Shown: piece by piece, positions 21,001-27,000 of the stretch
Layout: every line of letters starts with the position of its first letter
Position numbering within the stretch: the first letter of the stretch is position 1
Origin: Armatimonadia bacterium
GTDB lineage: Bacteria > Armatimonadota > Zipacnadia > Zipacnadales > UBA11051
Direction of reading: 5' to 3'
NCBI GenBank assembly: GCA_039683575.1
Contig: JBDKRC010000040.1
Location: 1-32,123 of the forward strand
Length of the DNA stretch: 32,123 bases
Program-made: the position numbers

Positions 21001-24000
21001 CCCGGAGCTTAAGGCCTACCAGGAGAACCCGCTGCGGCATAACACGATGTTTGGCTGCAAGTTCGTGCGGAACATCTGCTACTACACGCCAACCGGCGGC
21101 CAGTGGCTGCGGGACCACAACAAAGCGTGGGGTGGGCAGTTGGTCTGGACGTACCGCGGCCACAAGGATGACTTCCCGCTGTTCAAGTTCGACTACAACT
21201 GCGTCTACGGCCCCCAGGACCTGCCGCTCAAGTTCTCGCTCTCGCCCTACCCCGACCCCTCGAAGATGCTGACGTGGGACGAATGGCGGCAGACCGGGCA
21301 GGACGCGAACTCGATCTATGCCGACCCGGGGTTCGTGAATCCGGCCAAGCATGACTACCGGCTGAAGAAGGACTCGCCGGTGTTCAAGCTCGGGTTCAAG
21401 CCGATTCCGTTTGAGAAGATAGGGCCGTACAAAGATGAACTGCGGGCGACCTGGCCGGTGGTCGAGGCTCCCGGCGCGGCGGCCCTGGGCGACTTCACCA
21501 CGGAGCGTTACTTCGTGCTGCCCGGCGGTGAGAAAGCCTCCCAGCGCGTTCCTGCCGAGTATACCGCGCCCCGGCGCTCAGACGTGAAGGTGGATGGGGT
21601 GCTGGGGGAGTGGCCATGGGGTGATACCAAGGCCCTGATGGAATTGCGCGAGGAGTACAGTGGCGGCACGACGGCGGGGTTGCCGAGCCTGGCCTGCGCC
21701 GCGTATGACGATGAAGCTCTCTACATCGCGGTACGCAACCCAATGCGCAGGCCCGACGCTCTGGTCATGAGCGGGGCATGGGGTGGACGTGACGGGCTGG
21801 AGATCGCATTCCAGGATGCTGAAAGCAAGCAGGCTCCGATCCTGAACCTCTACGGTTACCCGGACGGGAGCCTTGAGAGCGTGACAACGGCCGGAGCCAG
21901 CACCGCACAGGCGGAGAAGCTGGGGAAAGCGACCGAGTACCGCGCGCGGCGGTACGAGGGCGGGTGGGAGTGCGAATGGCGGATACCGTGGGCGGCGACG
22001 GGGATCGATCCGGCGAAGGTCAAGCGCCTGCGCTTCAACCTCGGCGTCCGCAAGATGGAAGACAACGCGTGGGTCATCTGGCGGGGGACGGGCGGGTACA
22101 CCTTTGACCTGCCGAACGCCGGAATGCTGATCCTGAAGTAACCACTCGTGCGGCCAGGCTGCGATGCCCTAGTACAGAATCTTGTGGTCCCGCAGGCCCG
22201 TGAAGCCGTCCAGCACCAGCCAGAACCCGCCCGCGGCCATCGCCCCGAGGATCAGCCCCAGGAAGAGCGGCCGCGCGGACTGGTAGCCCTTGTGGCCTGA
22301 GTACCGGAGGATCACCGTCTGCAGCGCCCACCCGATCATCACCGAGAACCACTCTTTATGCAGATATGTGACGAAGGACATAGCGTAGCCGACCGGGTGC
22401 AGCGGCCACCAGAGGAAGTAGGTACGGCACAGGTTCAGAAGCAGCAGCTTGCCTGCTCCGTAGCCGATGACCGCGAGAGTAGCGAAGTCGATGTAGGGGT
22501 GCGGCGTCGTTACCGCCTTCTCCATGAACAGCCCCGGCTGGCGCGCCAGACTCACAAACCTGTAGGTGTTGATCGCCACGCCGCCATGCAGGTATGAAGC
22601 CTTCAGCAGCGCCCACAGCGACACCGGAAGCGCGATGAGCACGGTTAGGCCCAGGGCCTTCACCAGATCCTGATTCGAGGTCTTCGTCTCCGCCGTCATC
22701 TTGAAGGACTGCATGAAGCGCGGCATCGGCGAGACGCGTAGATCGTGCGAGAAGGTCAGCAGCATCCCCGTCGCCACGAGTTGCGGCACCCGCAGTGAGC
22801 CCTGCGGGAACAGTGACATGATGAGGTTGTGGCCGCGGTACTCCGGCTCCGCGCTCCACGGCATCCCCGCCTCCGCCACCAGCCTAGTCATGGCCAGCAG
22901 ATAGACGAAGGACATGCCCAGCATCAGTAAGGTGGGGAAGAGGGGCATCCCCGCGAACAGGCACCAGATCACGAGCCCCACGAAGCCCACCGCTCCGCCG
23001 TACAGCGCCACTCTCCGCGGCAGCCCCGAGCGCAGCGCGAACCTATCATCCGCCTCGCCCCGCAGCGCCGCCAGCAGGTTGTGCCGCGCCACCCAGATGC
23101 TCACACCAGCCAATCCCAGGTAGGCGCCGGCCGTCTGTAGTCCCGGGAAGGGGAATGGTTCAGGATGTGTGGCCGTGCGCAGCGACTCGATCCCCAGCGA
23201 TGTCCCCAGGATAGCTTCGAGCTTGCCGAACCAGTAGAAGGCCCAGAGGCTGAACGAGATCTCGCGGGTGAACAGGAAGCTCAGCCCGATGATGAGGGGG
23301 AGGATGGCGAGACGGAGGCCATTGAGCGGCGTCCAGGGCTTGCCCAACGTGCCTTGCCCGAGTGGCATGCCCCACAGGAATATGTCCGCCTGCGGGATCT
23401 TGGCGAAGTAGTCATGAAGGCCGGTATAGATGTGCGGCGCGGCCCCCAGGGCGATCCCCATCCACACGAGCTTGTTGCGGAAAAAGCTGTTGAACACATG
23501 CCCCGGCTCGGGCTCCTCTATGATCTTCAGCGGTACTATGACCAACGGAAAGAGCAGTCGCTCATGGTCTACCCACTGCCGCTGAAACAACGCCACGCCA
23601 CAGAGCATCACCCAATAGGCGAGCACAAAGAACAATGACCACGAGGACAGCGGGCCCATCCACGCGCCCCACGGCGGAGGGTGCGGTGAGGCCTCGAACA
23701 TGCCCTTGACCACGCCCGCGTCCTGCGGCGCGAGCCACGGCTTGATGTAGGGCAGGAACAGGCTCTCGTAGCGGTTCTCGTCACTGGCGTAGTAGAGCGG
23801 CCCGGCGATCATCGGTGGCAGCTTCTGCGCGATGTCGATCGAGGCGATGCCGATAGCCAGCGAGAGCATTGACCAGATGATTACAAGCTCTCGCGAGGAT
23901 AGCGCCAGTTGGCGCCGTATCAAGTACAGCGGCCACTGGAACAGGATGATGAACGCAAAAAAGACGAGGAAAGCGCCGATAGGGGGATATGTCAGCGAAA

Positions 24001-27000
24001 TCTGCGTGCCGTGGATGACCAGCTCCGCGTACTGGCTCCAGATACTGATGAACACAACGAGCAGGCCGCCGATGATGGCCGCCCGCCAGGTAAAACCACG
24101 CATATTGGTCGCCGGCGCAGGCTTCGCGGCCGGGCTTTCTACTGGGTCATGCATGCTGCAAGGTCTTCCTGCCTGTTTCGGTGCCTTAGTCTCTGCCGCT
24201 CTTCAACATCCCCACCAGCCACTCGGCTGCCTGGCCCATGCCGCTGATACTGCACATCTCGTCGAGGGTATGCGGGTCGCAAGCCCCGGTCGCACAGATG
24301 ACCGCCGGGATGCCACGCTCGTTGAAGACGTTGGCGTCGCTGCCCCCGCCGCCGATCTTGTACTGCACCGGCAATCCAAGCTTTAGCGCTGCGCGCGCCG
24401 CGACCTGCACCACTTCGGCATCCTCGCTGAGATGGAAACTCCGGTACGAGGACTGTGTGTCTTCCTCCAGCCGCGCCTGAGGATAGCGAGCTACAGCTTC
24501 CTGGAAGCACTGCCTCATGTGCGCGATCTGTGCGGCGAGCTTGGCTTCGTCGTGACTCCGCGCCTCGCCCCATACCTCGCAGCTCTCCGGCACTATATTG
24601 CGCGCCGCCCCGCCCTCGATGCGGCCGATATTCGCGGTCGTCTCCTGGTCGATCCGGCCGATCTTCATCGCAGCGATGGCCTGCGCGGCGATCTGGACGG
24701 CGTTGACGCCCTTCTCGGGGCAGACGCCTGCATGGGCAGCGAGGCCCAGCACGCGCCACGTCATCTTCGCGGCGCTCGGGGCGGCGACCGTCAGGCTACC
24801 GACCTCGCGACCGCCGTCGAACACCAGCGCATAGTCGGGGTTGACCAGCGAGTAGTCCAGCCCCTGCGCCCCATGAAGGCCGATCTCCTCGGCCACGGTG
24901 AAGACAACCTGCAACTCGCCGTGCGAAAGGCCCTGCTCCATGACTTCGCGCAGCGCGGTCAGGATGATCGTTACGCCGGCCTTGTCGTCAGCACCGAGAA
25001 TCGTGTCGCCTACGCTGCAGAGCATGTCGCCCTTGCACCCGACCTCTATGCTGCAGCCAGGTGCCACTGTGTCTATGTGGGCGTTGAGCATCACCGTGGG
25101 CATCGAGGGATCGGTGGCCGGGACGATCGCGATGACATTGCCGGTGCGGCTGCCGATATGCTCGCCGGCCTGGTCACGCTGTACTGTCAGCCCCATCGCT
25201 TCGAGTTTGCGCGTCACTGCCAGCGCCATCTGCTCTTCCTGCCCTGAGAGGCTGTCAATCCTGACCAGTTCCTCAAACTCCGCGCGCATCGCTTGTGAAT
25301 CAATCATCACGGCCACCCTCCTGTGTCCCGATTACTGCTTCACGTACACCTTGCCCTGGTCCTTGAGGTGGTCGCCATTGGCCACCAACTCAAAGCGCCC
25401 GACTTCCTGCCCGGTCTCATGGTCCACGATCATGATGGTTCGTGTCGCCGCCGTCTGGCTCGGCTGAGCCACCGCCGGGGCCGCCACCATCTTCCGGAAG
25501 GCTCCCAGGTCCAGCTTGGTGCCTGGACAGGTCTTGTTCTGAAATTCCCGGTGAAAACGGATATTCGCCTGCGTGAGCTTGAAGCGCTCCACCAGCATCC
25601 GCACCAGCTCAACCATGCGTGGCAGGCCACAGCGGGCCGGGTCCTCGACGTCGAAATTGCCCAACAGCACGACCCCGATAGTGTGCTGGTTGCGGTTCAG
25701 GACATGCGCCCCCGACCGCGTCACCGGCCGCAGCTTCCACAGCGTCCCGTCAGGCCCGACGCCGTAGTGGTACCCGATGTCAGACCAGCCTCGCTCGCCG
25801 GTGTGGTACCTGCGGATCGCCTCCCAGGTCGCCTTGCCCTGGTACTGCGCCGCCGTGGGGGCCCACGTATGGTGCACGACCACTTCCTGTATGCCCCGTG
25901 TGACCCTCGTCTTTGCCAACTCCGCCTTCAACTCCGCCAACGACACCTGCTCAATCGCCATCTTCGCCACCCGCCTGTTTGTAGTACGCTTCCATATAAG
26001 CAGGTACACGAACGGCGGATTTCGGCCAAAAACTTCCAGCAGCAAGCGCGGGCGGCCTCGCCCGCGCTTGTCAAAGCGCCGCTGCGCACCCGGCTGCGAA
26101 GCCGTGCGCGCAGTATTCTACTATTTAAGCAACTAATAGATTACTCGCCCGCTCCGGTCCAGAACAGATTAGCTCCGACTTGCGTCCTGTCGGCCATGTT
26201 TCCGATGGCAGGGATTGGGCCACCGGTGTTTGTGGACCAAAAGCGACTGAACTGCAGCCACTTGGCATGTCCGTCATAGTACGCAACGTTCAGGCCGTCG
26301 TTATGCCGGTCTGACATCCGGTAGCCCCCGGTAGCAGTGCGCTCCGGCGTTTGCTGACTGTAGGGGGGCCAGCACCAGTCCTCCGTGCTGACAGAGCCAT
26401 CGGCGATGAAGAAAGTCGAGACCGCGTTGATCTGCCCCTCTTTAGTGCTGACATAGGTGTCCTGCCCGTCAATCGGGTTCCCTGTGCCCGCACCAGCGAT
26501 TGCTGAAGCATTGAGGTGATAGCTCAGGGCGCGGTTGGTCGTGCTGGTCGAGGGACAGATGAAGATCTGATTGTTCTTCACATACGGCTGCAGCAGCGCC
26601 GGAACGCTTTGCAGGTCGGTGGCGCCATTTGGGTAGAGCGCTGTCGGCGCCTGATACGAGTATCGCCGCCAGCGGATTGTGCACTGGTCATAGTCCGACA
26701 TGTACTGGAGCATGCCCAGCGTGATCTGTTTGACGTTCGACAGACAGCTTGACTGCCGCGCCTTCTCGCGCGCCTTGGCGAACACCGGAAACAGGATCGC
26801 TGCCAGGATCGCGATGATCGCGATTACGACCAGGAGCTCAATCAAAGTGAATCCCCGTTTCATCCTCAACACCTCCAGGCGGTTAGGCACGGACTTTGCC
26901 GTACCTTGGGTCCAGAGCAGTCAGGTCTTGCACATCGAACAAGTGAGCCCTGCTCAACACTCCGAGATCATTCCGTCGAGCCGGTGAAGAACATGTTCGG

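Follow-up and report, generated by a model that had tools for sequence, protein, structure and literature searches.

The OPT transporters characterised so far are importers. Parts of the locus described here also recall other kinds of system, among them ECF transporters, in which a shared ATPase module serves many dispersed, divergent substrate-specific membrane subunits with occasional adjacency or fusion, and the Type VII ABC systems, which include MacB, LolCDE, FtsEX and BceAB. MacB-type units, like PqqD domains, are linked to export and peptide handling, and SusC/SusD-type polysaccharide utilisation loci provide a further comparison. Known OPT substrates comprise peptides, metal chelates and peptidoglycan fragments (PMC3061005, PMC9691689, PMC12284242), and barley YS1 has been described as an elevator-type dimer (PMC9691689).

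The window, that is, the whole stretch of 32,123 nucleotides analysed here, carries on its minus strand at 22169..24154 a gene for a protein of 661 residues that matches DUF6785 (E 4e-130) and DUF6784 (E 1e-27) in Pfam, with GC3 of 0.85 against GC2 of 0.44. A second DUF6785+DUF6784 copy, recognised by Pfam and 27% identical to the first, lies on the plus strand at 11480..13474 (664 residues from GTG 11480, the frame being open from 11255), and directly downstream of it on the same strand is the gene for a large partner protein of 1,561 residues, here called BIG (13600..18285; alternative ATG 13561). The 22169..24154 copy is of the dispersed type, with no module gene adjoining. A plus-strand gene for a beta-helix protein with a weak match to a GH141 insertion domain (19292..22141) converges on its 3' end; on the minus strand, a PepT-like M20 peptidase gene (24186..25316; TIGR01883 above cut-off), given as context only, ends 31 bases upstream. 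One or more amidase genes likewise lie upstream.

A search of the genome with PF20581 returned 25 matches at 24 loci, in agreement with the 24 copies reported in the genome-wide survey's note; its count of 21 whole copies gave way to 20 whole ORFs and 4 fragments at contig ends. Two pairs of fragments are complementary (profile positions 2-447 with 445-498, the contig ends sharing a 16-base overlap, and 1-195 with 205-498, where a contig-end overlap was looked for and not found), and the genome may therefore hold 22 DUF6785 genes. Whole paralogs have a median identity of 27% (range 17-59%). The family is present throughout the order, as the survey had it, in 67 of 67 genomes with our own included (66 in the earlier count), and in 172 of 201 genomes of the phylum. 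Three RNA runs from one study contain small shares, and short contigs identical to the window cover 22049-22289 and 23770-24014; since contigs from RNA libraries can be DNA, these are no evidence of expression. The DUF6785 label is absent from five supplements, file 4 in part, of an RNA-seq study of Fervidibacter sacchari on eight polysaccharides (PMC11535203). One protein there is labelled OPT superfamily by eggNOG.

Fold, kinship and proton sites of the DUF6785 proteins

The AlphaFold model of the 22169..24154 protein, built on an independent alignment of 150 sequences, reached a pLDDT of 95.4 and a pTM of 0.94. With this predicted model of one paralog, Foldseek gave two matches at E<=0.001, both barley YS1 (7WST and 7WSR; E 2-3e-10, TM 0.66-0.72), and VIA-align over 48,161 chains placed 7WSR first (Z 24.7, rmsd 3.8, 541 of 600 residues aligned) with the next chain at Z 5.6. 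The OPT/YSL fold proposed earlier is thus reproduced with YS1 as the sole clear match, and a search of PDB sequences with DUF6785 again found none. The core inverted repeat is not seen in the DUF6785 sequence (HHalign 1.8%) and is implied by the structural match only.

The earlier statement that no sequence search links the family to OPT does not hold. Pfam OPT (PF03169) matches neither this protein nor anything else in this genome; among 30 ORFs that underlie OPT matches in 201 genomes of the phylum, 19 are DUF6785 proteins, and hmmscan matches 8 of these 19 to PF03169, 4 of them at or over the cut-off (the DUF6785 protein L029, for example, gives 37.9 bits over profile positions 2-583 of 623). 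Furthermore, a DUF6785 profile of 340 sequences matches 76 of 120 canonical bacterial OPTs and none of 121 multi-helix membrane proteins of other kinds. The same profile matches 1 of 120 sequences of X, the second OPT-like protein discussed below, and HHalign joins DUF6785 to X at 94% and X to OPT at 35%; against one narrow bacterial OPT alignment DUF6785 scores weakly (27%), the global-mode alignment being meaningless. An NCBIfam scan matched neither DUF6785 nor X. ESM Atlas matches of the 22169..24154 protein, all below 0.9 and leads only, are to clusters of peptide transporters, of which one contains 15% OPT and another is mostly Thermoproteota. Overall, the predicted fold and the profile matches support placing the DUF6785+6784 proteins within the OPT/YSL superfamily as a branch that has diverged, and the fold match together with the presence of the family across order and phylum upholds the idea of a large hidden transporter family.

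The proteins share with OPT/YSL (PF03169; YS1 7WSR/7WST) the whole-chain fold, the size and, in profile alignments, the motifs T-x-R-A-x3-G in helix 1, E..L.FP in the arm, R-x5-G in helix 8 and a Lys ending helix 9. They differ in their low identity to YS1 (11-12%), in their paralog number, which ranges from 3 to about 50 in a genome, in a near-obligate tie to an ABC module, for which YS1 as described has no need (PMC9691689), and in lacking the DxxQD aspartates. These aspartates are invariant in 101 bacterial OPTs and required in barley YS1 (PMC9691689), whereas the DUF6785 columns at the positions of the helix-9 residues D490 and D494 of YS1, namely 479 (S/A/N/H/R) and 483 (G/S/A), are both non-acidic in 340 sequences; the mapping was made through a chain of profile alignments with K485 = YS1 K496 as the anchor, and not by superposition. 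They are absent from the X consensus as well. E428 lies near the region of YS1 D446, with the loop register uncertain. The label "proton-coupled" given to the family earlier is accordingly unsupported, two of the three proton-site aspartates of YS1 having no counterpart. The proteins may be ion-coupled nonetheless, because other acidic residues could substitute: E428 (79%), D471 (50%) and E482 (35%) are common in the core, and only 13 of 340 sequences have no acidic residue at any of the five core positions checked. Conservation in the same 340 sequences is 0.28-0.34 in the pocket-equivalent loops and 0.56-0.66 in the arm and scaffold motifs.

The large partner protein and its ABC module

BIG is recognised from Pfam matches, hydropathy, a predicted model (pLDDT 93, pTM 0.92), fold matches and co-occurrence. 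It is predicted to comprise an N-terminal hydrophobic segment, an M28-peptidase/PA-domain fold whose metal site is rewired, three extra membrane helices, a MacB periplasmic domain, an FtsX permease and a C-terminal tail. Within the 830-residue ectodomain the fold match spans residues 1-530 of the model, with 2EK8 (Z 29.3, rmsd 8.1, 389 aligned) and 1RTQ (Z 29.0, rmsd 2.4, 261 aligned). Over these residues the ectodomain resembles M28 aminopeptidases with a PA domain, the transferrin receptor and GCPII; it differs from the aminopeptidases in its metal-site columns, which read Y-Y-D, G-A-E and G-H-F and make ordinary peptidase activity doubtful. The canonical M28 pattern of two-zinc ligands (first His, Glu-Glu), together with the catalytic Glu, is not conserved in 63 sequences, where the first His column is Tyr in 71% and the Glu-Glu columns are His in 90% and Phe in 63%. 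The pocket contains conserved Asp, His, Glu and Arg. The BIG of the window has Val at a column that is 95% Asp, and one BIG copy of this genome contains an in-frame TAG. In the ESM Atlas, BIG matches one cluster at 0.78 that is 66% archaeal.

The BIG operon further encodes X, which NCBI labels "peptide transporter", a small FtsX protein, an ABC ATPase, a PqqD-family protein and a protein of 330 residues of no assigned family. X lies directly downstream of BIG at 27 of 41 loci and DUF6785 directly upstream at 6 of 41, with one or both at 31 of 41; all six core genes occur together at at least 11 of the 41. The module matches PF02687 (FtsX) and PF00005 (ABC ATPase), and Walker A, LSGGQ, Walker B and the H-loop of the ATPase are all intact. 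PF12704, the MacB periplasmic domain, scores 22.3 bits in the BIG of the window, under the cut-off of 27, and 38.2 in L136; LolC/E and MacB matches are weak and far under cut-off. As judged from its domains, the module is a predicted member of the Type VII (MacB/LolCDE-like) ABC units, with which it has in common the MacB periplasmic domain and the FtsX domain, the presence of another FtsX-type chain and an ATPase with intact motifs. It departs from them in its ectodomain of 830 residues with the M28/PA fold, its three additional helices, its partners of the OPT fold, its PqqD-family protein and its protein of no assigned family, a combination not met with in the papers searched. The likeness to ECF transporters is one of logic only, since the subunit is a 660-residue OPT fold and the module is of the MacB/FtsX type; homology is neither found nor expected, and Pfam and NCBIfam scans of the parts gave no ECF family.

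BIG is a near-obligate partner of DUF6785. Across 363 genomes of three phyla, among which related genomes are not independent, 169 have both, 193 neither, 1 BIG only and none DUF6785 only. The own phylum contributes 98 with both, 23 with neither and none discordant among 121, with presence splitting within families (f12 2/7, f16 1/9, f26 2/4); the phylum of G253 contributes 31, 169 and the one BIG-only genome among 201, and that of G255 40 with both and 1 with neither among 41. X is present in the same 32 genomes as BIG, and the small FtsX protein in 97 of 98 and 30 of 31 genomes with both in the first two phyla. As a control, DUF1559 and DUF6785 in 201 genomes gave counts of 24 (both), 7, 49 (DUF1559 without DUF6785) and 121. 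The co-occurrence of DUF6785 and BIG would equally be expected of a module whose sole task is to insert, mature or regulate the transporters.

Single-contig genomes G133 and G187 each have one BIG and one small FtsX gene, with 47 and 29 DUF6785 loci, respectively, and most DUF6785 copies lie far from the module. This distance, together with the retained YS1 fold, the common acidic core residues and the resemblance of the BIG ectodomain to receptors of the M28 fold that are not catalytic, the transferrin receptor among them, would suit self-sufficient H+- or Na+-coupled importers like YS1, with the BIG/ABC module serving only insertion, assembly, quality control or regulation. We consider such an arrangement rather unlikely. 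Canonical OPTs keep DxxQD, and the one canonical match among 201 genomes of the phylum is a family separate from DUF6785. In single-contig G254, all seven BIG copies have a same-strand DUF6785 gene no more than 4.1 kb from the matched part, for which the chance is about 0.05 per copy, and two records, L332 (2,114 residues) and P0113 (2,120 residues), are BIG-DUF6785 fusions; these observations agree better with a stoichiometric subunit than with a helper that is shared. The two fusions may go back to a single event.

Neighbouring genes and candidate substrates

In this genome the DUF6785 neighbours include GH106-like, GH95, GH38, GH42-like, PL11, sulfatase and Gfo/Idh/MocA genes, and in G133, at loci picked for a nearby pilin, GH4, GH29, GH5 and GH20. 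These are plain occurrences and no measure of enrichment; large secreted genes adjoin DUF6785 at 2 of 24 loci against 8.6%, with no excess. The M28-like ectodomain, the PqqD-family protein and the PepT-like neighbour point to peptides, against a sugar reading. Import of peptides, glycopeptides or metal chelates, with the M28-like domain of BIG capturing or trimming them and PqqD binding peptides, would also agree with the known OPT substrates, the NCBI name of X, the conserved pocket residues of BIG and the amidase genes upstream. We nonetheless judge it unlikely, as glycosidases, lyases, sulfatases and sugar dehydrogenases make up most of the neighbours, BIG is without the usual first His and Glu-Glu of M28, and a Gfo/Idh/MocA cluster, not the PepT-like gene, recurs beside six close orthologs of the 22169..24154 gene.

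Two prepilin-type genes of the window, encoding DUF1559-like proteins recognised by Pfam, lie on the minus strand at 26141..26863 (prepilin-type N-terminus and H-X9-DG; three genes upstream of the 22169..24154 gene, a loose association) and 26968..27702. The prepilin link drawn in the survey's note stands for this genome, where 8 of the 20 whole copies, or 9 of all 24 loci, have a prepilin gene within three genes (the note had 8 of 21) against 576 of 4,522 other genes (12.7%), and for G133, where a pilin gene is directly upstream of 8 of 47 loci against 0.6 expected; it fails in G187 (0 of 29 loci) and G158 (3 of 30 within 3.5 kb against 3.4 expected). At L198 (GH4) and L204 (GH29) of G133, a pilin-like gene, transporter and glycosidase form a single run as in SusC/SusD loci; unlike in those, the DUF6785 fold is an inner-membrane one, homology is lacking and the pilin pairing is lineage-limited. 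Divergence patterns of pilin and transporter in G133 match weakly (Mantel rho 0.31, p 0.03, 10 pairs). Recent duplication of one cassette there was rejected, the paired transporters being mostly 23-40% identical and from several clades of a FastTree tree whose deep branches are poorly supported.

The G133 pairing, the weak Mantel match and the association of both MacB-type units and PqqD domains with export and peptide handling might indicate export or display of proteins or peptides, for example the prepilin-like H-X9-DG proteins, or DUF6785 sensors signalling via the ABC unit without net transport. Either seems improbable to us, given the lack of enrichment in G187 and G158, the single pilin-bearing locus among 82 from mostly other phyla, the 49 genomes with DUF1559 and no DUF6785, and the importer role of characterised OPTs. 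A pilin as the defining partner was likewise rejected on the two non-enriched genomes and the only loosely shared presence of DUF1559 and DUF6785 in the second phylum.

A possible modular uptake system

DUF6785 and the ABC machine together suggest a new modular nutrient-uptake system. One reading, to which we give an even chance, is that a shared importer driven by ATP takes up mostly products of glycan breakdown and that the DUF6785 proteins are its exchangeable, substrate-specific subunits. A low-copy core of BIG, the small FtsX protein and the ABC ATPase (a MacB/LolCDE-type unit), with X, the PqqD-family protein and the 330-residue protein, would engage a single DUF6785 subunit each time, either by itself or via X, with ATP driving or gating the elevator motion of that subunit's core domain. 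The specificities may come from dozens of paralogs that differ in their pockets and are set among glycan-degrading genes, and the imported substrates would be mainly sugars, sugar acids and small glycan fragments. In favour of this reading stand the predicted fold, the kinship with OPT, the co-occurrence, gene order and fusions of DUF6785 and BIG, the copy ratios in G133 and G187, the intact ATPase motifs, the lack of the DxxQD aspartates, the variable pocket-equivalent loops, the carbohydrate genes nearby and the low number of matches to classic ABC-importer permeases (only 14 in this genome and 12 in G133). MacB/FtsX-type ABC units are known as exporters, extractors or regulators and not as importers, which counts against this reading. 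The plan of one module with many subunits is also not uniform, as G254 has seven BIG copies and G158 has 26 matches to classic ABC-importer permeases.

More broadly, and with slightly less than even confidence, we propose that interchangeable subunits of the elevator (OPT/YSL) fold are powered by an ABC unit of the MacB/FtsX type, and that together they form a class of ATP-driven importer not described before, which would be a main route for glycan-derived nutrients in Armatimonadota, Latescibacterota, Poribacteria, part of Planctomycetota and possibly archaea. A literature search found no description of an OPT-fold protein combined with a MacB/FtsX-type module.

The fold gives the DUF6785 family (8,712 representatives at 50% identity, fragments included) a transporter identity. 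The new part is the system, a conserved assembly of six to seven parts that brings an elevator-type secondary-transporter fold together with a MacB-type ABC unit. Should the ATP coupling be real, a fold known from proton symporters would here be put to primary-active use, and an ABC class associated with export and regulation would act as an importer. The system also provides a testable explanation of how several uncultured, enzyme-rich phyla take up the products of their digestion.

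Fold and kinship with the OPT/YSL transporters

The DUF6785+DUF6784 gene under study (22169–24154, minus strand) encodes a protein of 661 aa that carries both Pfam domains, and its AlphaFold2 model, built on a 150-sequence alignment, reaches pLDDT 95.4 and pTM 0.94. Foldseek with this model returned two matches at E≤0.001, both to barley YS1, and VIA-align over 48,161 chains placed 7WSR first (Z 24.7, rmsd 3.8, 541 residues; runner-up Z 5.6). The OPT/YSL fold proposed in the genome-wide survey's note is thus reproduced by an independent model and both searches with one paralog folded, and the other paralogs match the same Pfam model across nearly their full length. 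The predicted fold is a variant of OPT/YSL not described before.

The same note held that no sequence search links the family to OPT, and this is contradicted by two results. The Pfam OPT model (PF03169) has no match in the source genome and matches 25 of 201 phylum genomes, and 19 of 30 ORFs examined beneath such matches are DUF6785 proteins; hmmscan on 28 of the 30 (omitting one duplicate and one 39-aa frame) found PF03169 in 8 of these 19, four at or over the cut-off and one spanning profile positions 2–583. Because the 19 were picked for matching OPT, they prove that the link exists, not its frequency. In addition, a 340-sequence DUF6785 profile recognises 76 among 120 canonical bacterial OPTs, with no match (0 of 121) in other membrane proteins. 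The hmmscan set also uncovered a third OPT-like branch, here called X, which has a weak OPT match, the NCBI record name 'peptide transporter' and two genes in the source genome; X and DUF6785 align with an HHalign probability of 94% across 441 columns.

The source genome spans 6.23 Mb in 352 contigs and is 96% complete; close homologs carry the label Armatimonadota in their source records. The 24 copies claimed for it correspond to 24 loci, but 20 rather than 21 are whole; the other four, at contig ends, may be two genes in halves. Median identity among the whole paralogs is 27%. DUF6785 is present in 67/67 order genomes and 172/201 phylum genomes, and its representatives at 50% identity number 8,712. 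Among named genomes, the 79 best loci belong to Armatimonadota, Latescibacterota, Poribacteria, Gemmatimonadota-labelled, Planctomycetota and other records. Merged loci number 47 in genome G133, 29 in G187, 30 in G158, 51 in G254 and 30 in G256. Enlarged forms also occur (L333 on G045:C86, P0090, L351), including one of 1,447 aa without a match to the large protein BIG, one with an EF-hand insert and forms of 880–1,020 aa in Planctomycetota-sample genomes. Overall, the fold and the loci of the earlier observation stand and its sequence claim does not, and its interpretation is partly supported and is extended by a module around BIG.

A module that shares the distribution of DUF6785

A second DUF6785 copy in the window (11480–13474), divergent from a zinc-ribbon membrane protein gene (10415–11242), directly precedes the gene for BIG (13600–18285, plus strand; 1,561 aa). 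The ectodomain of BIG has a confident predicted model with an M28/PA-domain fold and a conserved but non-canonical metal site, and is followed by three helices, then a MacB domain, then an FtsX permease. Residue 248, an Asp in 95% of 63 homologs, is Val in the window's BIG, whose model contains a long helical insertion within the M28-like domain. The second BIG gene of the source genome (L231, C172:7686–12602), flanked by the ATPase and X, contains a single in-frame TAG, at codon 315, and its reading frame runs on past it; pseudogene, assembly error and read-through are candidates, and a tRNA search of that genome found one selenocysteine tRNA and no pyrrolysine tRNA. BIG homologs of 2,600–3,100 aa (L337, L338, L339) have some 900–1,300 extra N-terminal residues.

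The usual gene order is BIG, X, a 330-aa protein (L264:16998–17987) with no Pfam match and a conserved Trp and Cys-x2-Cys, PqqD, a small, distinct FtsX protein and an ABC ATPase, and this full order is seen in at least 11 of 41 BIG loci. X lies directly downstream of BIG in 27 of the 41 and about 1 kb onward in two, DUF6785 lies directly upstream in six, and eight have neither within 1.5 kb. Loci L281 (G111), L282 (G078), L263 and L289 have neither in the fetched region, and G111 and G078 each have a single DUF6785 match elsewhere. Triplets occur as both DUF-BIG-X and BIG-X-DUF. In single-contig G254, all seven BIG copies have DUF6785 within 4.1 kb, one of them fused; a second fusion record, P0113, is perhaps of the same origin. 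In the source genome, small FtsX, ATPase, BIG and X are grouped on C172, and the 330-aa protein and PqqD are on C293 and C306.

Presence of BIG and of DUF6785 is shared almost perfectly. Both occur in 98 of 121 genomes of the source's own phylum and neither in 23; the phylum of G253 (201 genomes) gives 31 with both, 169 with neither and one with BIG only, and that of G255 (41 genomes) 40 with both and one with neither. Kinship makes these genomes non-independent, and many are incomplete; the pattern nonetheless splits within families. X tracks BIG exactly in the G253 sample, and the small FtsX occurs in 97 of the 98 own-phylum genomes with both and, in the G253 sample, in 30 of 31, in the BIG-only genome and, as a borderline case, in one more. 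In a DUF1559 control against DUF6785 (24 both/7/49/121), presence was not shared in this way. The module and DUF6785 very probably work together in some way.

Energy coupling and the proton site

YS1 is described, in the accessible text, as a dimeric elevator-type proton symporter requiring D446, D490 and D494 (PMC9691689). Residues were mapped through chained sequence alignments (K485 = YS1 K496), by sequence rather than superposition. The D490 and D494 columns are non-acidic in 340 DUF6785 sequences; all of 101 bacterial OPTs keep the motif DxxQD unchanged, and the X consensus lacks it. One module per tens of divergent subunits (G133, G187), the fusions, the intact ATPase and the lost proton aspartates make a shared ATP-powered unit, which would drive exchangeable OPT-fold DUF6785 subunits, the simplest reading; drawn from genomes only, this mechanism has about an even chance of being correct. 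ECF transporters pair a shared energising unit with exchangeable subunits, a logic that the DUF6785 system would repeat with unrelated parts.

Against the shared unit stand the seven BIG copies of G254, the oddities in both BIG copies of the source genome and the acidic residues that DUF6785 keeps elsewhere (E428 79%, D471 50%, E482 35%), 13 of 340 sequences having none at any of five positions checked. That the subunits are ion-coupled carriers to which the module gives assembly or regulatory help is a possibility we hold to be rather unlikely, and a role in export or sensing appears quite improbable.

Gene neighbours and candidate substrates

Conservation in DUF6785 is lowest in segments equivalent to the YS1 pocket (0.28–0.34 vs 0.56–0.66 in the arm and scaffold motifs), which, judged from the alignment, would fit varied substrates as expected, though loops vary anyway. 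Peptides or chelates as substrates, partly compatible with a shared ATP-driven unit, are an unlikely alternative; Candida albicans Opt4 imports peptidoglycan fragments, according to the portion of the report available (PMC12284242). Among 98 scanned neighbours in the source genome, a tally without genome-wide background, many are glycosidases, lyases, sulfatases or sugar dehydrogenases, alongside numerous unrelated or unnamed genes. Three large secreted-type genes of the window (291–10320; BNR repeat, DUF6259, PcRGLX-like) are typical of glycan degradation. The gene under study ends a minus-strand run after a PepT-like peptidase and an amidase, whereas six close orthologs have a common Gfo/Idh/MocA neighbour cluster instead. 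Gene runs in G133 include pilin, transporter and GH29 fucosidase in sequence. Near the DUF6785 copies of G133 (L197–L211), genes of the carbon-nitrogen hydrolase, MttB-family, UROD-like and ADP-ribosylglycohydrolase types turn up repeatedly, a hint that the substrates may not be limited to plain sugars.

The reported prepilin association holds in two of the genomes compared and not in two others. By our gene calls (4,723 genes, 177 pilin-like, that is, prepilin-type or H-X9-DG), a pilin-like gene adjoins 6 of 24 DUF6785 loci in the source genome; the corresponding shares are 5.0% for other genes (p 0.001) and 7.6% for large secreted genes (p 0.014). Such a gene lies within three genes of 9 of 24 loci, compared with 12.7% of other genes. 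In G133 it is directly upstream on the same strand at 8 of 47 loci (0.6 expected), but there is no excess in G187 (0/29) or G158 (3/30 within 3.5 kb; 3.4 expected). Pilin-like genes of the source genome are often tandem, as at 26141–27702, where hrcA-grpE (27857–29695) lies upstream of two on the same strand; a PilT/T2SSE-type ATPase gene (30717–31943) stands at the window's end, and many related pilin N-termini occur in RNA-library contigs.

In the literature searched, with subscription journals outside its scope, DUF6785, DUF6784 and their Pfam numbers are absent, and two InterPro numbers are not among the matches listed. No match combined four of PqqD, FtsX, peptide transporter, M28 and operon, and the work listed on MacB, OPT, YSL and elevator terms, judged by title or abstract, includes none on such a system. 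OPT evolution is treated without this family in the available parts of PMC3061005 and of bioRxiv 10.64898/2026.08.27.747422, the latter containing neither 'DUF' nor 'Foldseek'. The accessible text on F. sacchari names one OPT-superfamily protein from an eggNOG label (PMC11535203), which means that some branch may already carry an OPT tag in annotation pipelines. Within this literature, InterPro, Pfam clans and TCDB lying outside its scope, the conserved assembly of OPT-fold and MacB-type ABC parts is, as far as searched, a kind of system not described before.
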